A stretch of DNA of 63,950 bases, the filler included, from an uncultured Methanoregulaceae archaeon (GTDB taxonomy: Archaea > Halobacteriota > Methanomicrobia > Methanomicrobiales > Methanospirillaceae): assembly GCA_964530035.1 (NCBI GenBank). It is 3 parts of 3 records of this genome, joined end to end, with 100 filler letters (N's around TTAATTAATTAA, not from the genome) between each part and the next. Parts side by side here need not be neighbours in the genome. Positions count along the whole stretch, not along the records: positions 1 to 24,519 come from CAZGXZ010000012.1; 2 more parts are not named here. One strand, 5' to 3'. The notes under the pieces are model-generated. The model made no database searches, was not told the DNA's origin, and saw nothing but the letters and a program-made list of their open reading frames with translations. The stretch's first letter is position 1. The number at the start of each line of letters is the position of its first letter. Position numbers and translations under genes: made by a program. This document shows positions 8,046 to 20,174 of this stretch, piece by piece.

Positions 8046-9065
8046 TCAGACCTCCCGGGGGAGGACATGTGAACGGTACCAGGTGTACATCCCCTGTTCC
8101 AGGAGCGCATCGAGTATGACCAGCGCGGCCATGGACTCGGCCACAGGAACGATGCGGGGGACGATACAGGGGTCATGGCGCCCCGATATCCTGACCTCCC
8201 GGGGCCTTTTCTCGTCATCAATGGTTTGTTGTGTACGGGAAATTGAAGGGGTTGGCTTGACGGCAATCCGGATGAACACGTGAGAGCCCGTAGATATTCC
8301 GCCGAGGACCCCCCCGCAGTTGTTCGTCACCAGCCCTCCGGGAACAAGGGGGTCGTTGTTTTCGGAGCCATAACGTCCTGCAGCTGAAAAACCGGAGCCA
8401 ATCTCGACTCCCTTGACCGCCCCTATCCCCATCATTGCGGACGCAAGGGCGGCGTCAAGCTTACTGAAAACGGGATCACCAAGACCGGGCGGGCATCCTG
8501 TTACCGTAATGACCACCGTGCCCCCGACCGAGTCCCCGGAGTCCCTCGCAGCCCTGATCTCTTGGGCCATCTCTTCACTGCCTGATACTCCATGGATTGT
8601 CTCGATACTCCCTGACACAAGCACACCTGCAAGGGAGAGGCATTTCATGGCCACCGCTCCCGCGGCGACACGGCCCACCGTCTCCCGGCCTGATGAACGC
8701 CCGCCACCCCGGTAGTCACGGTGGCGGTACTTTTCCTGCCAGGTCATGTCGGCATGGCCTGGACGGAAGATATGGGCGAGTGAGTCGTAGTCGGAAGAAT
8801 GGTGGCCGCTGTTCCGGACAAGAAGGGCAATAGGCGTCCCAAGGGTCAGGCCCTGCCATATACCGGAAAGGACCTCGACCTTGTCCTCCTCCTGCCGTGC
8901 TGAAACGAGGTCGCTGGTCCCTGGGCGACGCCTGTCCAGTACCTTCTGGATGTCGCCCGTTTCAAGAGGGATCCCTGGAGGACAGCCATCGACCACCGCC
9001 CCGACAGCAGGACCATGGCTCTCGCCGAACGTTGTAACCCTGAAGTTCCTCCCGAAGGTATTCAT
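8046..9065 (-). CDS. aroC: Chorismate synthase
   Basis: TTFGESHG, RPGHAD, RGGGRSSGRET, KPTPSI, GRHDPC. Confidence 0.97.
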   Translation of the reverse strand: MNTFGRNFRVTTFGESHGPAVGAVVDGCPPGIPLETGDIQKVLDRRRPGTSDLVSARQEEDKVEVLSGIWQGLTLGTPIALLVRNSGHHSSDYDSLAHIFRPGHADMTWQEKYRHRDYRGGGRSSGRETVGRVAAGAVAMKCLSLAGVLVSGSIETIHGVSGSEEMAQEIRAARDSGDSVGGTVVITVTGCPPGLGDPVFSKLDAALASAMMGIGAVKGVEIGSGFSAAGRYGSENNDPLVPGGLVTNNCGGVLGGISTGSHVFIRIAVKPTPSISRTQQTIDDEKRPREVRISGRHDPCIVPRIVPVAESMAALVILDALLEQGMYTWYRSHVLPREV

Positions 9066-10441
9066 AAAAGGATGCTCCTGATGCGGTCTGGATCAGTACG
9101 TATACCGGTGAAATGGAAAAACTGCGCGCACGCCTGGTTGATGAACATCTCGGTCCCGGGTATGGTAGCGCATCCCCGCTCCCTGGCTGCCTTGATCAGG
9201 GACGTTTCGGGAGGTGTGTATACAAGATCGAAAATGGTCGTACCAGGACGGAGGAGGTCTTCCGGAACGGAAAGGGGGTCACCCGGAGACATGCCGACAG
9301 GGGTCGTGTTGATGATCAGGTCCGGTTCCAGCCCATGCACCTGCGAAACAGGTACATGCCTGACATTAAACCGCTCGGCAAGCGCCATCGCCCGTTCTGG
9401 AGTTCTCCCTGCAATCGTCACAGAAAAGCCTGACCTTAATACGGCATACACCGCGGCGCGTGCAGCCCCCCCCGCTCCCACGACGAGGGCGTCCGTCCCG
9501 CTCACCCCCGACAGGGCGGTTGCAATGCCTTCCCAGTCGGTGTTCATACCATACGACCGGCCGCAAGAGAAGATGACGGTGTTCACTGCCCCTATCAGCG
9601 CTGCATCATCGGAAACACCGTCCAGGAGGGGAAGCACGGACTCCTTGAACGGGATGGTAACTGATATCCCCTTCATGCCCGAATCCAGGAGGTCGCCCCA
9701 GATATCGGCAATATGCACGGGTTCAAGGCCTATATAGGCAGCAGGGATCCCGTACTGGAAAAACAGGGCAGAAAAGAGGGCTGGGCTCCTGCTGTGCCCG
9801 CAGGGATTGCCTACGACTGCAAAAAGGGTCCTGGCTACATGCCCGTTCCCCTCCTGCATCAGGGGACGAAAAGATTGCCGGTTCAGAACGGTTAGATCAC
9901 CAAGGCGTTTTCGTGCCGGGATTGTTGCAGGAGAGGGTGGGATTCCCTGTATCCAGGATATGATTTCCCGGACGACCTTTTCAGGCTCACTCTTCCCTGT
10001 GTGGATACAGATATCGGACGCACGGCGATAGGCCGGTTTTCGCTGTTCCAAAAGGTGCCGGACCTCGTCGGCAGGCGACATGCCAGTAAGAGGGGGGCGG
10101 TCTGAACCTTCAAGGCGTTGTACAATGACATCGGCAGGTGCATCCAGGACGACCATGAGACTTCCTGCCCTGAGTTCTTTCACATTTTCAGGGTCAAGGA
10201 CAGCTCCCCCTCCGCAACTGATGACACAGTCCGTGACCGGAAGCGACATGATGATGTCATGTTCAACAGCCCTGAAAAATGCCTCTCCATGGACCTGAAA
10301 AATTTCCGGGATAGACATGCCGGTCTTTTCCCCGATGAGACGGTCGGTCTCGAACAGGGGGATTTCCAGCCGTTCGGAGAGTAAATTCCCAACCGTCGTT
10401 TTTCCTGTACCGCGAAAGCCCGCAAGGACGACACGGGTCAC
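9062..10441 (-). CDS. aroE: Fused shikimate kinase (P-loop, bacterial type) / shikimate dehydrogenase
   Basis: N-terminal GFRGTGKTTVG, SCGGG, RPPL; C-terminal GNPCGHSRSP, VTIPFK, GAVNT, NTD, GAGGAARA, INTTPVGM. GTG start overlaps the aroA stop. Confidence 0.93.
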   Translation of the reverse strand: MTRVVLAGFRGTGKTTVGNLLSERLEIPLFETDRLIGEKTGMSIPEIFQVHGEAFFRAVEHDIIMSLPVTDCVISCGGGAVLDPENVKELRAGSLMVVLDAPADVIVQRLEGSDRPPLTGMSPADEVRHLLEQRKPAYRRASDICIHTGKSEPEKVVREIISWIQGIPPSPATIPARKRLGDLTVLNRQSFRPLMQEGNGHVARTLFAVVGNPCGHSRSPALFSALFFQYGIPAAYIGLEPVHIADIWGDLLDSGMKGISVTIPFKESVLPLLDGVSDDAALIGAVNTVIFSCGRSYGMNTDWEGIATALSGVSGTDALVVGAGGAARAAVYAVLRSGFSVTIAGRTPERAMALAERFNVRHVPVSQVHGLEPDLIINTTPVGMSPGDPLSVPEDLLRPGTTIFDLVYTPPETSLIKAARERGCATIPGTEMFINQACAQFFHFTGIRTDPDRIRSILL

Positions 10442-11706
10442 CGGATCACCTTTGAAAAATCCGGAAAAAAACCGGGATAGGATTTTGAAACACAACCAGG
10501 GTCAAGGATTTTCATTCCTCCGGTTTTCAGGCCGAGGACTGCCGCACTCATCGCTATCCGGTGGTCATGCGCTGGGTCAACCGTCACCCCTTTGAGAGGA
10601 CCGGGGGTTATGGTTATGCTGTCTCCCTTATCCTCAAAACCCACTCCACAGGCTCTGAGGATCTCACCCATCTTGTGTACCCGGTCGCTTTCCTTGAATT
10701 TTAGATGGGCAACCCCTGATATGCGCGAAGGAGAAGAGGCGCACGCTGCAACGGCACAGAGTGTGGGAACGGTGTCGGGAGCGGAGCTCATATCGGCCTC
10801 GATCCCTTCGAGATTCCCATCAGATTCGACAATGGTCCGGTCTGGCTCTGCAATGACCGAGCACCCCATGTCATGGAGCCTGTCAAGGAAAGCCCTGTCC
10901 CCCTGGACTGAACCAGGATCAAGGTTGAAGCCTGTCACTTTACCTCCTGCCACTGCTGCCGCTGCAAACAGGTATGAAGCTGACGAGTAATCGCCTTCAA
11001 CATGATACGCTGCGGCCTTGTATCCATGCCCGGGATAAACACAGAATTCATGGTACCCCTGCCGCGAAACCGGGACTCCAAACCGTTTCATAACGTCGAG
11101 GGTGATATCAAGGTAACTGGCTGACACCGGTTCACCGGTCACCCTGACCACCGCCCCTGCATCCCAGCAGGGCGCGGTCATGAGGATGGACGAGATAAAC
11201 TGGCTGCTTGTCGTTCCCGCGATACATACCTCCCCTCCCTGCACAGGTCCTGAAACCGTGACCGGCGGACAGCCCTGCATTCCTGAATAACGAACCTTCG
11301 CACCGAGCGATTGAAGCGAGGCTGCCAGGTCCCCTACCGGACGTTGCCTCATCCTGGACCCCCCGGTCAGGGTGACCGGACAGGGGCAGAGGAGGGCAAC
11401 AGACATAAGGAGACGGAGGGATGTCCCTGATTCAACCATGTCAAGCACCGGTGGTTCCGGACAGAGGAGAGTGCCGTGGGTCCCCCGGATAATGAAACCG
11501 TCACCGTCGGATACGAACCTGGCCCCTATCGAAGACAGGGCAGACCTGGTAACATGGGTATCAGCTGATTCCAGGGGTCCGCTTATGTGGGACACCCCGT
11601 CAGCCAGTGCGCCTGCCAGAAACGCCCTGTGAGTGTAACTCTTGGACGGCGGTGCATGGAACTCCCCCCATACCTCCTTCGCCCTCCTGATAATCACCGG
11701 GTCCAT
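10438..11706 (-). CDS. aroA: 3-phosphoshikimate 1-carboxyvinyltransferase (EPSP synthase)
   Basis: PPSKSYTHR, ESGTSLR, SSQFISS, EGDYSSA, KESDR, DHRIAM, KSYPGF. Confidence 0.97.
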   Translation of the reverse strand: MDPVIIRRAKEVWGEFHAPPSKSYTHRAFLAGALADGVSHISGPLESADTHVTRSALSSIGARFVSDGDGFIIRGTHGTLLCPEPPVLDMVESGTSLRLLMSVALLCPCPVTLTGGSRMRQRPVGDLAASLQSLGAKVRYSGMQGCPPVTVSGPVQGGEVCIAGTTSSQFISSILMTAPCWDAGAVVRVTGEPVSASYLDITLDVMKRFGVPVSRQGYHEFCVYPGHGYKAAAYHVEGDYSSASYLFAAAAVAGGKVTGFNLDPGSVQGDRAFLDRLHDMGCSVIAEPDRTIVESDGNLEGIEADMSSAPDTVPTLCAVAACASSPSRISGVAHLKFKESDRVHKMGEILRACGVGFEDKGDSITITPGPLKGVTVDPAHDHRIAMSAAVLGLKTGGMKILDPGCVSKSYPGFFPDFSKVIR

Positions 11707-12489
11707 TCATATCTCCTTACGGTTGTAGCATCCGAGTTCCCGGACGCAGGCCATGGTCCTGATCTCTTCAAGGATGGCACCGACAGGCCCTACGGGTTCG
11801 AGGTCGATAAAGAAGACGTACTGGCCCATCTTCCGTTTCGACGGCCGGGACTCTATCCGGGTCAGGTTTACCCTGTTTCTCGCAAAAATACCGAGAATAT
11901 CATAGAGGAGGCCGGCCCGGTCCTCCTCAGGGTCGATAAGAAGACTGCACTTGGACGGTGCCGGTATGACCTCCGGAAAACGTTCAATGGTTACAAAACG
12001 GGTGGTGTTGTCTGCCTGGTTTTCAATGTCCTTCTGGAGCATTCGAAATCCGGAGACCTCCGAAAGGTGCACGGGGATAACCGCTGCTGAACCGTCCCTG
12101 CCGGCTGATGCCCGCGCACTTGCCGCGTTGCTCTCGGTGTACTCCACAGGCAGGCAGAGAGAGTCAAGGTATACGCTGCACTGTTCATAGGCCTGGGGGT
12201 GTGCGTACAGGAGGTGCACAGGCTCCGGTCCGGGTGTCGCAAGGACATACCGGACAGGGTAATAGTATTCACCCGTGATAAAGACCCTGTTCCTGAAAAA
12301 ACCGTCTAAAGTCTGGCCGACACCACCGGCCTCGCTGTTTTCAAGCGGTACCAGGCCTGTACCCTTGCCCTCCATGACACTTGAAAAGACACGACCTATG
12401 GTCGGGACGAGTTCAATAGATCCACCAAAGATGCGTGTTGCCAGCTCGTGGCTGAAGGTCCCTGACGGGCCCAGAGTATAACAGGTCAC
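11707..12489 (-). CDS. pheA: Prephenate dehydratase with ACT domain
   Basis: LGPSGTFS, VPLENS, HPQAYEQC, NTTRF, NLTRIESRP. GTG start overlaps the tyrA stop (alternative start 12504). Confidence 0.94.
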   Translation of the reverse strand: MTCYTLGPSGTFSHELATRIFGGSIELVPTIGRVFSSVMEGKGTGLVPLENSEAGGVGQTLDGFFRNRVFITGEYYYPVRYVLATPGPEPVHLLYAHPQAYEQCSVYLDSLCLPVEYTESNAASARASAGRDGSAAVIPVHLSEVSGFRMLQKDIENQADNTTRFVTIERFPEVIPAPSKCSLLIDPEEDRAGLLYDILGIFARNRVNLTRIESRPSKRKMGQYVFFIDLEPVGPVGAILEEIRTMACVRELGCYNRKEI

Positions 12490-13310
12490 TGTTCCACCAT
12501 CCACCGGATAATATTGTCCGTGAGGGTGCGCCCCTCCTCGCAGTATCCTCCAAAAAAAGCCGTATCTGATCTGAACAAGGCCTCGAAACCCACGCGGTCC
12601 TTCTCATGGACGCATGCTGCAAGACGGGACCATGCATCCTGTCCGGCCATGATGACGTCCCACACATACCGGTTCTCCATCATGATGTCCGCATACAATG
12701 ACGGGTCCTGGCTGAGGAGCCTCCCGACGATACCCATTTCCAGCCGGTAGACGGGGCTGGTAAAGGGAAGCGTCGAAAGCGGATTGATGCCGGCGCTACG
12801 GATTGTTTCTGCAACCATCAGTGAGACAAAATGGACAAGTCCCTGAACCACCGCCATCATGCGGTCATGTTCTTCGGGAGTCGTGGTCGTGACAGTGGCT
12901 CCTTCCTCCCGGAACAGGTCCTGGATCCATTGCACCTTGCTGGCATCGCACCGTGCGGGAGTGATGATGATGGTCTGGTCACGTAGCGAGGGAACGGAAG
13001 GCCCGAACATCGGATGCATGCCAAGGACGTGGGAGCGTGAGGCCAGCATAGCCTGTACCGGCCCCTCCTTGACCGAGGTAAAGTCCGCAAGGACCTGGTC
13101 CGCGTCCATGAGGGGCGCGACCTCGCTGATGACCTGCACCGTGTCCCTGATGGGAACGGAAACAATGACAAGGTCACAGGACCTGGCGATGTCCTTTCCG
13201 GTAACGGCAGTTGTACGGCCTGATATCATGACCTCGTGGCCGTGGCGTTCGAATACCGGGGCGAAGAAACCGCCCATCCTCCCTGTCCCGCCGATGATGC
13301 CAACCTTCAC
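12486..13310 (-). CDS. tyrA: Prephenate dehydrogenase
   Basis: GIIGGTGRMG, DFTSVK, HPMFGP, EHDRMMAVVQG. Confidence 0.94.
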   Translation of the reverse strand: MKVGIIGGTGRMGGFFAPVFERHGHEVMISGRTTAVTGKDIARSCDLVIVSVPIRDTVQVISEVAPLMDADQVLADFTSVKEGPVQAMLASRSHVLGMHPMFGPSVPSLRDQTIIITPARCDASKVQWIQDLFREEGATVTTTTPEEHDRMMAVVQGLVHFVSLMVAETIRSAGINPLSTLPFTSPVYRLEMGIVGRLLSQDPSLYADIMMENRYVWDVIMAGQDAWSRLAACVHEKDRVGFEALFRSDTAFFGGYCEEGRTLTDNIIRWMVEQ

Positions 13311-13316
13311 GACAGA

Positions 13317-14303
13317 TCACTTCTCACGGATGGTTTCTTTAACGGCCATGCCGAAATGACGTCCCCCTTCCTCAACAGAACCGAGGACCGTGTCACCCTC
13401 CCTGAGGGTTACGACTGAAACGGGAGATCCATCGGTCCCAACAAGCCTGATAGTCTCGGCGTTCTGCAGGACGAGACTCGCTTTTATGCCCTCGTACTCA
13501 GCCTCGACAAGGAGGAGGGGCCGTTTTTCCGATTTCGTCCTCCCAATGACCGCCTCCTCAGCTTCTCCCGATGACCGGACCAGCAACACCCGGTCACCGA
13601 TCCCAAGATCAGACAGGTACGCTGTCTTTCCGCCCGGGACCATCACGTAGGCATGCACCGCTCCGGCATTGACCCTGAACGGGCGTGGCGCAACGTAGGG
13701 ATTTTCAACGGTCTCTGCGTGTACCAGCAGGAATGCGGAGGAAGTATTCCCGACCAGCATCCCCTCCCCCTCCTTCATGAGAGTGCAGGTATCGATACAC
13801 ACACGGTCTCCCATCCCGAGCTGCCTGATGGAAGTGACGACAAAGGGGAAAAGATCAGCGTGTTCCATTCCGCCCCGTACCACCGCTCCCACCTGCCGGA
13901 CAATACCGGGTTCACGGGTTGAGAGCAGGATCCCTGCGACCCCTTTTTCGAGGACGGACAGGGCAACCGCCGCCTCTTCGGCATCCCTGACAACGGCTAT
14001 GATCCGGTCAGACTGTGCCACCAGGTTTTCAAGGGGGATGACAGTCCAGTCGTCGGCCTCTACGGCTGAATACCCATGAACCGAGAGCCGGAGTGCCTCC
14101 TGCTCGGAGTCCTTGTCCGTGATCCGGGTGAAAAAGACCTCCTCACCTTCATGGAGGTCTCCGTCAGGAGCAACGGTCCTGACCCGCGAAAGAACCGTGG
14201 CATCTGCCGCCCGGTCGAGTACCAGGGTGTCCGCACCGCTTTCAATCGCAGTAGTGGCAAGGTCCTTGTCCCAGGGACGGATATCTACCCAGAACTCTTT
14301 CAT
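13317..14303 (-). CDS. aroB': 3-dehydroquinate synthase II (archaeal, MJ1249 type)
   Basis: WTVIPLENL, GDRVCIDTC, RPFRVNAGAVH, LQNAETIRL, GRHFG. Confidence 0.95.
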   Translation of the reverse strand: MKEFWVDIRPWDKDLATTAIESGADTLVLDRAADATVLSRVRTVAPDGDLHEGEEVFFTRITDKDSEQEALRLSVHGYSAVEADDWTVIPLENLVAQSDRIIAVVRDAEEAAVALSVLEKGVAGILLSTREPGIVRQVGAVVRGGMEHADLFPFVVTSIRQLGMGDRVCIDTCTLMKEGEGMLVGNTSSAFLLVHAETVENPYVAPRPFRVNAGAVHAYVMVPGGKTAYLSDLGIGDRVLLVRSSGEAEEAVIGRTKSEKRPLLLVEAEYEGIKASLVLQNAETIRLVGTDGSPVSVVTLREGDTVLGSVEEGGRHFGMAVKETIREK

Positions 14304-15079
14304 TTCCCGGTCACGTCCCTGGGATCGGCGTTTTCATGGACCACCCGGCAGAGACGGCTGACGAACTGGGAGGTGTCCTTCCGCTGGAATGCATTTCTTC
14401 CAAGACAGACCCCTGCCCCGCCGGCACCCACGGCATCACGGACGATCATCAGAGTATCAAGGTCACCCGCCTTTTCCCCTCCGGCAATGAACACCGGGAC
14501 GGAACATGCCCTGACAATCCGGCTGAATGCGTCCGGGTTCCCGGGGTAATTGGTCTTTATCATATCAGCCCCGAGCTCTTCGGCCACCCTGACACAATGC
14601 CCTATCGTCTCCGGGGAAGCCGGGTCGATCCCTTTCCCCCTCGGGTAAATCATGACGAGGAGGGGCATCCCCCACCGGTTGCAGTCCCTGACGACATCAC
14701 CCGCTGATTCCAGCATCCGTGATTCGTTCGGGGCTCCTAGATTGATATGGATCGATACGGCATCCGCCCCCAGGGCGACTGCTTCCTCTACGGTACAGAC
14801 CAGGACCTTGTCATTCGGGTCGGGGTTCAGCTGGGTGCTTGCCGACAGGTGGACGATTAGGCCGATGTCCCTGCCTTTCCTGCGGTGGCCTGCCTTGACC
14901 ATCCCCTTGTGCAATACAATCGCATTGGCACCGCCTTCACTGATGGCCGAAATGGTGCTGGTCATGTCAAGCAGGCCGTCGATCTGGCCGAGGGTGAACC
15001 CGTGGTCGAGTGGAACTATGACAGCCCTCCCGGTATTCCTGTTGATAATACGTTCTATCCTGATACTTTTTCCAATCAT
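14300..15079 (-). CDS. aroA': 2-amino-3,7-dideoxy-D-threo-hept-6-ulosonate synthase / DhnA-family aldolase, copy 2
   Basis: VPLDHG, LSAST, GADAVSIHIN, YPRG, ADMIKTNY (Schiff-base Lys), GRNAFQ; SD GAGGTG upstream. Confidence 0.85.
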   Translation of the reverse strand: MIGKSIRIERIINRNTGRAVIVPLDHGFTLGQIDGLLDMTSTISAISEGGANAIVLHKGMVKAGHRRKGRDIGLIVHLSASTQLNPDPNDKVLVCTVEEAVALGADAVSIHINLGAPNESRMLESAGDVVRDCNRWGMPLLVMIYPRGKGIDPASPETIGHCVRVAEELGADMIKTNYPGNPDAFSRIVRACSVPVFIAGGEKAGDLDTLMIVRDAVGAGGAGVCLGRNAFQRKDTSQFVSRLCRVVHENADPRDVTGK

Positions 15080-15089
15080 TGCAACCACC

Positions 15090-15884
15090 TCATGCCAGGG
15101 TCAGAAGGGCCTCCTCTGCAGTCCGCCCTTCGTGGATAATCATCGCCGCTGCCTTGATGAACCGTGCAGGGTCCGCATGCTGGAACGCGTTCCTGCCGAT
15201 GGAAATACCCTTTGCTCCACCTTCCATCGCCCCTTCAATCAGCTCAAGGGTCGCACGGTCGTCGGTCTTTGACCCTCCCGCAACGACTACAGGGACCGGG
15301 CAGCCCCGGGTGACCTCCCTGAAACTGTCCGGGTCGCCGGTGTAGACCGTCTTGACCACATCGGCCCCGAGTTCCGCGGCTACCCTGGCGGCAAGACTCA
15401 CGTGGCCGACGTCATGCTCGTTCTGGATCTTCTTCCCCCTGGGGTACATCATCGCAAGGAGGGGCATCCCCCACTCCATGCACTCGACACCGGTCCGGCC
15501 CAGGTCCTCGAGCATCCTGGCCTCAGAGTCAGCCCCGATATTCACATGGATGGAAACGGCATCCGCTCCCATCTTCAGGGCATTTGTCACCGAGTTGACG
15601 ATGACCTTTTCATTCGGGTCAGGTCCTATCGATGTGCTTGCCGAGAGATGGAGGATAAGTCCAACATCCCTTCCACTCTGCCGGTGACCGTACAGGGCCA
15701 GCCCGATATGCCCGATAACCGCGTTCGCTCCTCCTTCCGCGACCCTGTCAACTGCGAGCGACAGGTCGGTCAGACCCGCTATGGGTCCGCTGCTCACACC
15801 ATGGTCCATCGGGACGATGATGGTTTTTCTCGTGTTCCGGTTTATAATTCGTTCAAGACGGATGGCTTTTCCTCTCATGGACAT
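15090..15884 (-). CDS. aroA': 2-amino-3,7-dideoxy-D-threo-hept-6-ulosonate synthase / DhnA-family aldolase, copy 1
   Basis: VPMDHG, LSAST, YPRG, ADVVKTVY, GRNAFQ; first gene of the aro operon, SD GGGGTG 6 nt before the ATG. Confidence 0.88.
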   Translation of the reverse strand: MSMRGKAIRLERIINRNTRKTIIVPMDHGVSSGPIAGLTDLSLAVDRVAEGGANAVIGHIGLALYGHRQSGRDVGLILHLSASTSIGPDPNEKVIVNSVTNALKMGADAVSIHVNIGADSEARMLEDLGRTGVECMEWGMPLLAMMYPRGKKIQNEHDVGHVSLAARVAAELGADVVKTVYTGDPDSFREVTRGCPVPVVVAGGSKTDDRATLELIEGAMEGGAKGISIGRNAFQHADPARFIKAAAMIIHEGRTAEEALLTLA

Positions 15885-15892
15885 CACAACCA

Positions 15893-15943
15893 CCCCTCTC
15901 CCGTGAGATCTCCCGCCTTTCCGGCAGGGGATCAGGAGAAGGG
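15893..15943 (-). promoter_or_regulatory. Leader hairpin that pairs with the Shine-Dalgarno region of the first aro gene
   Basis: Minus strand reads CCCTTCTCC-T-GATCCCCTGCC-GGAAA-GGCGGGAGATC-TCAC-GGGAGAGGGG: inner 11-nt arms with one mismatch and one G-U pair, outer arms pair the pyrimidine tract with the SD. Confidence 0.6.
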
Positions 15944-16069
15944 AAAACGATAATACCTAAAGGTAAAGGAACAAAAATCGAAAATGACCTTCGGTCCATG
16001 TCTTAGAACCTGGTCAGAATCGCTGTTCAGACGGCAGGGCGAGTACAACTCAGTGATAAAGACATTCAC
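15932..16069 (-). CDS. Putative Phe/Tyr-rich leader peptide (uORF, 45 aa)
   Basis: GTG-start ORF (M)NVFITELYSPCRLNSDSDQVLRHGPKVIFDFCSFTFRYYRFPFS*; 6 Phe and 2 Tyr in the last 16 codons, directly upstream of the Phe/Tyr biosynthesis operon. Confidence 0.45.
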   Translation of the reverse strand: MNVFITELYSPCRLNSDSDQVLRHGPKVIFDFCSFTFRYYRFPFS

Positions 16070-16096
16070 GAGCGAAAAAACACTCACCTTGCATAA

Positions 16097-16130
16097 ATGA
16101 TGGTTATCATAGAGTCTATAAAAAAATTGT
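16097..16130 (-). promoter_or_regulatory. Putative aro operon promoter (TATA box) with a downstream palindromic operator
   Basis: TTTTTATA on the minus strand at 16124-16117, followed by ATGAT-AACC-ATCAT (16110-16097). Confidence 0.55.
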
Positions 16131-16144
16131 GGCGAAGGGTCAGG

Positions 16145-16636
16145 TCACTTCGGTACCCGCTTGATTGAGATGACATCTCCGAGGGTTGGAACCACGGATT
16201 TATGAGAAGGTTTGGCCTCCTCCAGAGGCGGGGCATCAAGAAGGGATATCCCCAGGGCTTTTTCCAGTTTTTTCCTGACATCATCTTCAGGCAGCAGTTC
16301 CCCTTTTTCTATCTTCTTGATCAGCAGCTCCCGCTCCATTATCTCAAGGGCAAGCTCCTTCTGGCTCAGGCCCATTTCCATCCTTGCCTTCCTGACCCGC
16401 TCGGAATAGTCCTCGGCAATCTCTCCCTCCATGTAGTCAAAGACATCCCGCCTTTTCCGTACGGGGGCAGTACCAGGTTTTACAACCCCGCCCTTCTGGA
16501 CCAGATCCTGGCGTTTCGGCTGCTGTACTTCCACACCGTACCGGGCACACTGAACACACACGGATAACTCGGCGCCCTCCACCCGGACGGTCTTTGCAGG
16601 CCCTTTTATCGCTGCGCCACACATTTCGCAGTGCAT
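16145..16636 (-). CDS. mbf1: Archaeal multiprotein bridging factor 1 (Zn ribbon + HTH)
   Basis: CEMCG...VCVQCARYG zinc ribbon; ARMEMGLSQKELA...KIEKGELLP HTH; terminal TLGDV; divergent from pan. Confidence 0.93.
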   Translation of the reverse strand: MHCEMCGAAIKGPAKTVRVEGAELSVCVQCARYGVEVQQPKRQDLVQKGGVVKPGTAPVRKRRDVFDYMEGEIAEDYSERVRKARMEMGLSQKELALEIMERELLIKKIEKGELLPEDDVRKKLEKALGISLLDAPPLEEAKPSHKSVVPTLGDVISIKRVPK

Positions 16637-16692
16637 ACCATTCGCAAACATCTATATAGTCATTTTTCCCTATATACCTATTTGAAGCGCAT

Positions 16693-17931
16693 ATGGCAGA
16701 AATCGCCCGCCAACCGTCGGATCCTCAGTCCCCTGAAGAGCTGTACCGGTATCTCCTCGAACGGGTAACCGCGATGGAGACACGGAACCTGGAACTTCGG
16801 GAACAGCTCCGCCAGACCGAGTCCGACAAGCGCTATGTCGAGACCCAGAAGATACGATACGAACGTGAAGTCAGGAAGCTGAAAAGCGAGATAGAAGCCC
16901 TGCGAAGTCCGCCTTTGATTATTGGTACGATCACCGATGTCGTCGATGCCAACCGGGTCATCGTCAGAAGCAGTGCAGGTCCAAGGTTTCTCGTCCGGTG
17001 CTCCCTCTCCATAGACCAGGAACTGGTAAAGCCTGGTGCACGTTGCACGATGAACCAGCAGTCCCTTGCAATTATTGAAGTGCTGCCAGGGTCCTATGAC
17101 GCCGCGGTCTATGGCATGGAGGTTGTGGATTCGCCTATGGTGACGTATGCAGACATCGGCGGACTTGAAAAGGAGATCACCGAGGTCAGAGAAGCAGTCG
17201 AACTCCCCCTGAAACAGCCGGAATTGTTTGAAAAAATCGGGATTGTCCCGCCAAAAGGCGTTCTGCTGTTCGGACCCCCGGGAACGGGCAAGACTCTTCT
17301 TGCTAAGGCGGTGGCCCATGAAACGAAGGCATGCTTCCTCCACGTGGTCGGTTCCGAGCTCGTCCAGAAATACATCGGGGAAGGGGCCCGTCTTGTCAGG
17401 GAACTGTTCGAGCTCGCCAAGAAAAAAGCTCCCACCATCATATTCATCGATGAGATCGATGCAGTCGGTGCGTCACGCACCGAGGCCACGACCTCGGGAG
17501 ACCGCGAGGTCCAGAGGACCCTCATGCAGCTGCTCGCAGCCATGGACGGTTTTGAACCGAGAGGGGATGTAAAGATCATCGGTGCGACCAACAGGATAGA
17601 CATCCTTGACCGGGCAATCCTCCGTCCCGGGAGGTTCGACAGGATCATCGAGATCCCTCTCCCGGACTTCCAGGGAAGATCGGCAATCCTTGACGTCCAT
17701 ACAAGGATGATGACCCTTGACGAGAGCGTCGACCTCCCGGAGGTGGCCCGTCTCACCGAAGGTAAGAACGGAGCGGAGCTCATGGCCATCTGCATGGAGG
17801 CGGGAATGTTTGCCATCAGGGGGGAGCATGAGCGAATCCTGATGGAAGACTTCCTGATGGCCATCCAGAAACTCTCCGTTCCGGGCGGGGGGAAGGATTA
17901 CCGCCCCTCCTGCGGAGAAATGTTTGCATAA
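16693..17931 (+). CDS. pan: Proteasome-activating nucleotidase, copy 1
   Basis: N-terminal coiled coil, [36 protein letters not shown]-terminal MFA. Confidence 0.95.
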
Positions 17932-18962: not shown

Positions 18963-20129
18963 TCAGATATACATCCTGTTATCGGACGTGGTCTCGGTTG
19001 CAAGGACTTTGTGGACGGCCTCGAGGAAGTCGTCCTGGGAGATGACCGCTGCTTCCCTCCTGACCGCAATCATGCCTGCTTCCCGACAGATAGCCTGGAT
19101 TTCTGCTCCGGTAGTACCTTCGGACAGGGTGAGCAGGGATTCAGGGTTGACGTCGGCCCCGAGTTTCATCTTCCGGGTGTGGATCCTGAAGATCTCGCGC
19201 CTTCCATCGGCATCGGGCAACGGGATCTCTATGACACGGTCAAAGCGGCCTGGCCGGAGCAGGGCGGCATCCAGCATGTCCACGCGGTTCGTCGCTGCCA
19301 TGATCCTGACATCACCGCGGTTATCGAACCCGTCCATCTCGGCCAGGAGCTGCATCAGGGTCCGCTGCACTTCTGCGCTCCCTGACGTACCATCATTCGT
19401 CCGGGTACTCCCGATTGCATCGATTTCGTCGATGAATACAATGGACGGTGCCCGTTCCCGTGCAAGGGTGAAGAGCTCCCTGACCAGCTGAGCTCCCTCA
19501 CCAATATATTTATGGACGAGTTCCGACCCGGACATGCGGATGAATGTCGCCTTGGCCTGATGTGCGACGGCTTTTGCGATAAGGGTCTTGCCCGTGCCAG
19601 GGGGACCGTACAACAGGATCCCTTTCGGAGGCTCGACCCCGATCCTCTCGAAGACTTCCGGCCTCGTAAGCGGGTACTCAACGGCTTCGCGGACTTCCTC
19701 TATCTCTGTTTTAAGCCCGCCAATCTGTTCGAAGGTCGCTACAGGTGACTCTTCGAGTTCCATGACCCTGACACGGGCGTCGTAAATGTTCCCTATGATC
19801 TTCACGATGGAGAGGGCATTATTGACCGCGACCTTGGTACCGGGCTTGAGGAGGGTGTACATGTCCTCGCTTACAATGGTCAGGTATTCCTGGTTGTTAC
19901 CCTGCTGGCGGAGATAGACCTCGTTGTTGTCAAGGAGTTCGACGACGGCCGCCACGAACAGTGGCATACGCTTGAGCTGATTGTTTTCACGCTTGAGAAG
20001 CGCGTTTTCCTTCAGGAGTTCCTCGTACCTGACCTTGAGCTCAAGGGTCTGGGCCTCGAGCTCCTGCAGTTTAAGCTGAAATTTCAGCTCGTTATCGCTC
20101 CCGAAGGTATTGGTCAGTGACTCGTCCAT
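18963..20129 (-). CDS. pan: Proteasome-activating nucleotidase, copy 2
   Basis: Coiled coil, [25 protein letters not shown]-terminal HbYX motif MYI. Confidence 0.95.
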   Translation of the reverse strand: MDESLTNTFGSDNELKFQLKLQELEAQTLELKVRYEELLKENALLKRENNQLKRMPLFVAAVVELLDNNEVYLRQQGNNQEYLTIVSEDMYTLLKPGTKVAVNNALSIVKIIGNIYDARVRVMELEESPVATFEQIGGLKTEIEEVREAVEYPLTRPEVFERIGVEPPKGILLYGPPGTGKTLIAKAVAHQAKATFIRMSGSELVHKYIGEGAQLVRELFTLARERAPSIVFIDEIDAIGSTRTNDGTSGSAEVQRTLMQLLAEMDGFDNRGDVRIMAATNRVDMLDAALLRPGRFDRVIEIPLPDADGRREIFRIHTRKMKLGADVNPESLLTLSEGTTGAEIQAICREAGMIAVRREAAVISQDDFLEAVHKVLATETTSDNRMYI

Positions 20130-20174
20130 ACGCCTAATACGAATAGTGCCTCCATACATTTATGTGGTGCGATA

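Follow-up and report, generated by a model that had tools for sequence, protein, structure and literature searches.

Leader-peptide attenuators such as trpL, hisL and thrL are known from bacteria. In the E. coli pheL-pheA type, an upstream ORF (uORF) rich in end-product codons stands ahead of a biosynthetic operon and is followed by a stem, and the aro leader described here shows the same order of parts. At the end of E. coli pheL, +1 frameshifting was reported as incidental (PMC3082878). In the ermC leader (ermCL), a ketolide induces a shift into a new frame, the mRNA is unfolded and downstream initiation is permitted, while among +1 sites the yeast Ty1 element uses CUU_AGG_C and Ty3 exemplifies +1 shifts without re-pairing (all from passages of PMC5009743). 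The prfB site reads YTT_TRA_C (PMC3711429, in extract). For Archaea, the available passages of a 2021 review (PMC8211752) mention frameshifts in fucA1 (-1), magnesium chelatase (-1, proposed) and haloviruses; a +1 case in a cellular gene is not among them, nor is any linked to the supply of amino acids. A 2016 review of frameshifting (PMC5009743) describes, in the passages to hand, the natural role of hungry-codon shifting as unclear. The words "attenuation" and "leader" are absent from the available text of PMC6737238 on archaeal control of aromatic genes. TrpY of Methanothermobacter and Tar/TK0271 of Thermococcus serve the same pathways and respond to amino acids; unlike the aro leader, they are DNA-binding regulators of transcription initiation and involve no leader peptide.

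We analysed the leader of an aro operon within a 63,950-nt stretch of DNA, filler included (hereafter the window), from an uncultured Methanoregulaceae archaeon (GCA_964530035.1). It is very probably a translated leader that senses aromatic amino acids, and entry of ribosomes into its aromatic tail is likely to occur by frameshift. The full reading, in which hungry-codon +1 frameshifting gates a leader-peptide attenuator ahead of the aro operon and a freed Shine-Dalgarno sequence (SD) is the output, is the one that we favour, with some reserve, from the sequence comparisons below. The features of the locus are as follows.

16115..16122 (-): TATA-like box TTTATAGA, 28 nt ahead of the leader ATG 16094
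16050..16094 (-): frame-0 uORF of 14 codons, MQGECFFARECLYH and a stop; ATG 16094, stop 16052-16050
16074..16088 (-): site 1, GGT GAG TGT, then TTT (P site) and TTC (A site, Phe); a +1 shift that senses Phe is predicted here
16056..16070 (-): site 2, CGT GAA TGT, then CTT (P site) and TAT (A site, Tyr); a +1 shift that senses Tyr is predicted here
15932..16078 (-): +1 frame, stop-free for 48 codons, from site 1 up to its TGA
15935..15982 (-): aromatic tail, U-rich, 8 Phe/Tyr in the final 16 codons
15943-15893 (-): hairpin; 5' arm formed by the last codons and stop, 3' arm by the purine-rich SD region 15902-15893
15090..15884 (-): aroA', with which the operon begins, encoding ADH synthase; scores for TIGR01949 and NF005556 exceed the cut-offs
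15884 or 15878 (-): start options of aroA', ATG 15884 or the conserved ATG 15878, the latter kept in relatives
8046..15088 (-): remainder of the operon, namely second aroA', aroB', tyrA-like, pheA-like, aroA, aroK-aroE and aroC

Compared with the pheL type, the aro leader is archaeal and apparently leaderless, has 23-73 extra codons and carries its sensing codons at the very end. A continuous ORF from the start to the control codons is absent in the window leader and in 48 of 58 complete leaders picked by protein (it is present in 10); the shift of pheL is incidental, but here no route other than the +1 change was found by which the ATG could feed the tail. With ermC the leader shares a stem that sequesters a downstream SD; ermCL differs in having an antibiotic trigger, in a bacterium, and a shift site without an end-product codon. 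With prfB and Ty1 it shares a YUU in the P site, a slow A-site codon, the +1 direction and a frame 0 that ends soon after the site while the +1 frame stays open and conserved; unlike in either, the A site holds a sense codon for Phe or Tyr, matching the pathway, the sites are in tandem and the product is a leader peptide. The aro leader works like a pheL-type leader with a Ty1/prfB-like shift site and an ermC-like output, and belongs to none of these classes. Our literature search found no description of such a device (most subscription papers lay outside its reach, and the supplements of PMC3711429 may list these genes), and the device is unnamed in the available passages of PMC8211752, PMC5009743, PMC3711429, PMC7261190, PMC6737238, PMC13681488 and PMC11616081. 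If the reading is true, it would provide a ribosome-based amino acid sensor in archaea, where we found only DNA-binding regulators described, the first cellular +1 programmed frameshifts in this domain and a natural use of hungry-codon shifting.

Leader frames across Methanomicrobiales

The leader sits between aMBF1 and the aro operon, whose order, aroA'-aroA'-aroB'-tyrA-pheA-aroA-aroK/E-aroC, comes from an NCBIfam search in which tyrA and pheA scored below the curated cut-offs. A first-pass annotation of this DNA had proposed a 45-codon leader ORF running from GTG 16069, or from an in-frame TTG 16048, to TGA 15934-15932, with 8 aromatic codons in its final 16. All of these elements are indeed present in the sequence (6 Phe and 2 Tyr were counted), and the ORF is contained in the +1 frame, which extends upstream past GTG 16069 and is open at GTG 16087. 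As starts, however, neither codon is supported: GTG 16069 is lost in 5 of 47 leaders and TTG 16048 is not conserved in relatives, while ATG 16094 is conserved instead, in another frame. The key element absent from that annotation is a conserved +1 frame change at the Phe and Tyr codons.

A search of 61 Methanomicrobiales genomes with AroA' provided 59 first-aroA' leaders, chosen by protein, which were read. Among these, 48 possess the shift sites and have the tail in the +1 frame (cassette leaders), 10 lack the sites and form one frame from ATG to tail (continuous leaders), and 1 is cut off. In a frame-blind test, where the best aromatic window was located without regard to frame, this window fell in +1 in all 48 cassette leaders and in frame 0 in 9 of 9 site-less leaders, plus L055. 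The 48 cassette leaders have 22 distinct ATG-to-stop distances, all equal to 1 mod 3. The same test placed the best aromatic window in +1 in 83 of 83 pattern-picked leaders after removal of duplicates; such picking fixes the motif letters and leaves frame and tail free. Left out were 7 of 170 loci (4 second paralogues and 3 without a gene start), 21 duplicates, and L002, which lies at a contig end. Since kin genomes share descent and are not independent, counts are given without P values.

A GTDB pattern scan returned 107 loci, and among the matches listed all but two were titled Methanomicrobiales or Methanobacteriota. L077 and L100, with the motif and aroA' downstream in contigs labelled Bacillota and Bacteroidales, are probably mis-binned methanogen contigs. 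The continuous leaders span 5 genera of 3 families and the motif is found in all 6 families, from which it appears that the motif was probably lost more than once. Half of the continuous leaders (5 of 10) keep the first codons of the cassette (ATG NNN GGT) and run in frame to the tail, which argues that the leader ATG feeds the tail.

The start of translation is most likely ATG 16094, used without a 5' leader and in a frame differing from that of the ORF proposed before. Of the 48 protein-picked cassette leaders, 46 have a TATA-like word 24-35 nt ahead of the ATG, as do 8 of 9 continuous ones, the ATG typically lying about 28-32 nt past the start of the word; the position of the box in the window suggests a leaderless or nearly leaderless transcript. 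With this, the missing SD of the uORF, raised as a worry by the first-pass annotation, ceases to be one, because the likely true start looks leaderless. In L046 the ATG is preceded by an SD of its own. All 130 unique cassette leaders have an in-frame ATG 15 or 33 nt before site 1, a frame-0 stop 9-21 codons past this site and a +1 frame open for 23-73 codons. In the 48 protein-picked cassette leaders, at least one frame-0 stop precedes the tail in every case, and no stop codon was found within the +1 frame ahead of it. Searched against the covariance models of Rfam (T-box, riboswitches and leader families included), the leader matched no family: the 6 hits with E no higher than 10 each scored well short of the gathering score.

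Predicted shift sites and aromatic tail

Sites 1 and 2 form a tandem 18-nt repeat with the patterns YTT-TTY (Phe) and YTT-TAY (Tyr), each joining both frames. In 47 protein-picked leaders, the P codon of site 1 is TTT (42) or CTT (5) and its A codon TTC (42) or TTT (5); at site 2 the P codon is TTT (32) or CTT (15), the A codon TAT (38) or TAC (9) and the next +1 codon ATC (38) or ACC (9). Read in frame 0, the A-site codons of these leaders vary by synonymous changes alone. A P-site YTT followed by T, such that its tRNA could re-pair on UUU after a +1 move, occurs at both sites in 47 of 47 leaders and, by eye, in L014. The prfB internal SD has a spacer of 3 nt. Unlike prfB, the aro leader has no stop codon in the A site, and its SD-like GGUGA, which precedes each site, has an aligned spacing of 6, within the ordinary initiation range of this genome (about 4-9); because the spacing is ordinary, a prfB-like push by a compressed SD is not claimed, and the working would be Ty1-like. 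A third, decayed 18-nt unit stands ahead of both sites in L070, L071, L080, L090, L108, L127, L021, L044 and L063; in leaders with this unit the ATG stays in frame 0, and the ATG lies 33 nt before site 1 in 14 of 130 leaders. The 16S 3' end, tRNA-Phe and tRNA-Tyr were not found in this assembly, which is 86% complete.

At each of the final 12 positions of the tail, the aromatic share is 0.40-0.81, compared with 0.04 in the linker. In 43 of 47 leaders an aromatic codon stands last or next to last, which fits a ribosome dwelling right at the stem. Taken alone, the tail is only moderately above chance: among 2102 crudely called genes of this genome, 8 have a comparable upstream stop-ending frame, with 6 or more of its final 12 codons aromatic. 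It is conservation that carries the case: the last 12 positions of 48 leaders hold 141 Tyr codons in the +1 frame versus 8 and 0 in the other frames, and U-richness fails to explain this imbalance. Comparison of aroA' leaders across Methanomicrobiales, for which the first-pass annotation had advised an alignment, revealed conservation of a translated Phe/Tyr/Trp-rich leader together with an SD-covering hairpin. Among best matches only of aroA' in 12 other families, none of 20 loci had at least 6 aromatic codons in the terminal 12.

Related sites in other biosynthetic genes

Sites of the same design were found elsewhere in these genomes. For a cimA-like gene, 20 loci from Methanomicrobiales were compared, and in 18 a matching site carries an Ile codon, the exceptions being L201, with Leu in place of Ile, and L213, without a site. 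Its enzyme frame has no ATG, GTG or TTG before the conserved domain in 7 of the 20, this genome included, where the uORF reads M-T-D-R-F-I-L-stop and the enzyme, without a start codon, lies in +1 (G000:C169:1641-1664, +). The locus heads the ilvB operon (comparison loci L201-L220 and L287-L306). The name cimA rests on JGI/UniRef names of close matches and on the place ahead of ilvB; NCBI names for close matches are mostly isopropylmalate synthase, and NCBIfam and PDB searches did not separate cimA from leuA. In other families the site was present in 14 of 20 loci, 11 of them without ATG, GTG or TTG in the enzyme frame, extending the cimA-like device to six further families of the phylum. Five distant sites have ATT in the P site, where re-pairing is poor and which simple slippage fits poorly.

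At the leuA-like gene, all 9 loci compared (9 of 9) have a Leu codon at the site, as does this genome, where a leaderless uORF ends YGY-YTT-CTT and the enzyme lies in +1 (G000:C33:716-763, +; L222-L230). The enzyme frame is without a start in 3 of the 9 loci and in this genome, and an in-frame ATG or GTG stands upstream of the site in 5 of the 9. A second ilvB, which stands alone, has a leader with a Val codon at the site in 4 of 4 genomes, M-T-(D/E)-(C/S)-F-V (G000:C127:4760, -; L236, L258, L259, L260), whose 68-75-codon +1 frame ends on or just inside the ilvB start, with an ATGA overlap in three. At trpE a Trp device with a -1 offset was found in 24 of 31 loci: an SD, M-P-(V/L)-(E/D)-W and a nearby stop (G000:C82, about 2500-2550, +; L171-L200), with the enzyme in the -1 frame via an ATG (14) or CTG (9) that overlaps the Trp codon. 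It is a candidate for a -1 shift or for a restart triggered by stalling. On the promoter side of L171-L200, TGTACA/TGTATA repeats that resemble the TRP box bound by TrpY surround the TATA box of trpE.

Inspection by eye in five genomes found no shift site at hisG (8 loci), ask (5), argC (5) or the operonic ilvB (4), all of which have ordinary starts. Genome-wide site scans were noisy (at least 557 raw rows, later 66), the loose motif alone being common by chance, and the rows tied to conserved sites belong to aro, cimA, leuA and ilvB only. On balance, we think it probable that these sites make up a general recoding-based amino acid regulon, in which YTT plus an end-product codon in a short uORF gates either a leader peptide, at the aro operon (Phe, Tyr) and the second ilvB (Val), or an enzyme, at cimA (Ile) and leuA (Leu), with a -1 counterpart at the Trp codon of trpE. 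As five genes have an A-site codon that matches their own pathway, the question of a natural role for hungry-codon shifting becomes testable with short reporters. Furthermore, if this is true, start annotations of cimA, leuA and trpE would be wrong or missing in many methanogen genomes.

Hairpin, mechanism and alternative readings

The final codons and stop of the ORF pair with GGGAGAGGGG at 15902-15893, confirming the hairpin over the aroA' SD that the first-pass annotation had described. This hairpin folds at -33.9 kcal/mol, and the 241-nt leader has a fold z of -3.2. Across relatives, the stem z averages -2.16 in 56 leaders versus -0.11 in 47 linker controls, and the unpaired probability of the SD is below 0.35 in 45 of the 56, indicating that the stem takes up the aroA' SD. 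The hairpin sequence differs from clade to clade. The stem covariation for which the annotation had advised a test did not appear in the one clade aligned (26 leaders, gappy alignment), which gave 3 consensus pairs and no two-sided change. Between the window leader and a same-genus leader, L002, the loop and bulge differ, with one pair-keeping change. A run of at least 4 T in the final 22 nt before the gene occurs in 4 of 47 leaders, and, unlike in the pheL type, no intrinsic terminator (hairpin and U run) with an alternative antiterminator was found in the aro leader.

The effect of a ribosome on the stem was modelled by masking the mRNA from 15 nt ahead of the A site to 12 nt past it, a span that matches Haloferax ribosome footprints (PMC7261190, passages available). 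Mean SD accessibility in the model rises from 0.19 in the free leader to 0.22-0.32 with a ribosome on the tail codons (0.32 at the last aromatic codon) and is highest, at 0.39, with a ribosome on the stop; for the window leader it goes from 0.28 to 0.49 (last aromatic codon) or 0.58 (stop). A gain above 0.3 was obtained in 4, 8 and 13 of 56 leaders for the first, middle and last aromatic codon, respectively, and in 14 of 56 at the stop. The model suggests, weakly, that a stalled ribosome melts the stem and frees the SD, as the first-pass annotation had proposed.

In the mechanism that we propose, ribosomes would initiate at the leaderless ATG 16094, as its conservation suggests. With Phe-tRNA and Tyr-tRNA plentiful, they would exit at the frame-0 stop after 14 codons, leaving the uORF peptide as the presumed default product; the tail would never be reached, the hairpin would hold the aroA' SD closed and the operon would stay low. 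With Phe or Tyr short, the ribosome would wait on an unfilled UUY or UAY in the A site, and the P-site tRNA on YUU would move +1 to UUU. Both sites enter one +1 frame, so that a shortage of either end product would suffice, as in an OR gate. In the least certain steps, the shifted ribosome would crawl through the Phe/Tyr/Trp tail to the stop, cover the 5' arm of the hairpin and free the SD, and may also mask U-tracts from aCPSF1. As the modelled opening is greatest at the stop, it would run in the wrong direction for the continuous leaders, unless dwell time decides.

The main rival to entry by frameshift is a restart at GTG, which we hold to be unlikely overall. Here the +1 frame would start on its own GTG or ATG, located 8 nt upstream of the site, either by direct initiation or when a ribosome that has stalled at a hungry codon drops its short peptide and re-initiates, and the frame-0 uORF would be a sensor or damper. 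Such an RTG is indeed present ahead of site 1 in 47 of 47 leaders (44 GTG, 3 ATG, the only change being GTG to ATG, probably in 1-2 events), and a GTG precedes site 2 in 42 of 47; yet the 5 leaders without this GTG retain site 2, the invariant YTT-then-T is left unexplained, and upon decay of the sites it is the leader ATG, not the GTG, that comes into frame with the tail. The cimA sites always come with GTG or ATY in the enzyme frame, the codon overlapping the Trp codon at trpE resembles an ATGA junction, and 5 of 9 leuA loci have the upstream in-frame start mentioned above, whereas leuA of this genome and L224 have no canonical start or ATY at the site. That RNA polymerase slips on the T run, so that a transcript one base shorter joins the frames without ribosomal recoding, seems very improbable: the run at site 1 is 6 T in most leaders, but falls to 4 T in the 5 of 47 with CTT TTC, to 3-4 T at site 2 and to 3 T at many cimA sites. 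Slippage of this type would not track the amino acid of the pathway. Nine public RNA runs, all consisting of contigs, contained at most 0.18 of the sequence words, and the four that were aligned revealed no transcript starts or ends and no base deletions (a weak point, contigs dropping rare variants). We give equally little credence to the motif being an element that binds a protein as DNA or RNA (either a TTCRC-N2-GTGAA palindrome or a GTGAR/TTYRC hairpin), with nothing translated to effect and a tail that is a plain terminator or a chance Phe run. Every change at the four pairs of the site-1 hairpin keeps pairing, a count biased by pattern-picked loci, but an element of this kind cannot explain why all 22 distances equal 1 mod 3, why the +1 frame is free of stops or why Tyr codons are so unevenly spread over the frames. 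The site-1 structure may add to the shift without replacing translation.

The frameshift sensor that we favour could also act through another output, a less likely reading that overlaps with ours in its first steps. In this case aCPSF1/FttA would bind the bare U-rich tail and end transcription before aroA', a slow shifted ribosome would mask the tail, and the hairpin would be a pause site or a second, translational layer. Binding of aCPSF1 to U-tracts, with an affinity related to tract number, is described in PMC8716108, and exclusion between ribosome and FttA was proposed as a hypothesis in the accessible part of PMC11616081. Of 47 tails, 36 have at least two U4 tracts within their final 45 nt, versus 0 of 47 linkers. 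Attenuation of this sort would control the whole 8-gene operon and would explain how continuous leaders work by stalling, and the modelled opening of the SD is weak. Against it, the aromatic codons create U-tracts by themselves, and 45 of 56 leaders have the SD bound up in the hairpin.

Several minor observations concern the surroundings of the leader. A palindrome of the GTGCTA-N-TAGCAC type, which looks like a putative operator of some regulator, occurs at aroA' promoters, including those of families that lack the leader; the loci are L032, L038, L040, L043, L044, L046, L051, L059-L061 and L063, and further ones are L310, L314, L316-L318, L320, L321, L323, L324 and L326. The window has a weaker palindrome, ATGAT-N4-ATCAT, at 16110-16097. 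A TGTACT at about 16046, which is like a TRP box, was considered as such an element and rejected, there being none at that place in relatives. Finally, two proteasome-activating nucleotidase-like genes lie close together in the window (16693-17931 and 18963-20159, +; only the first was scanned) and adjoin aMBF1 (16145-16651, -), a gene that stands ahead of the aro operon in many relatives.
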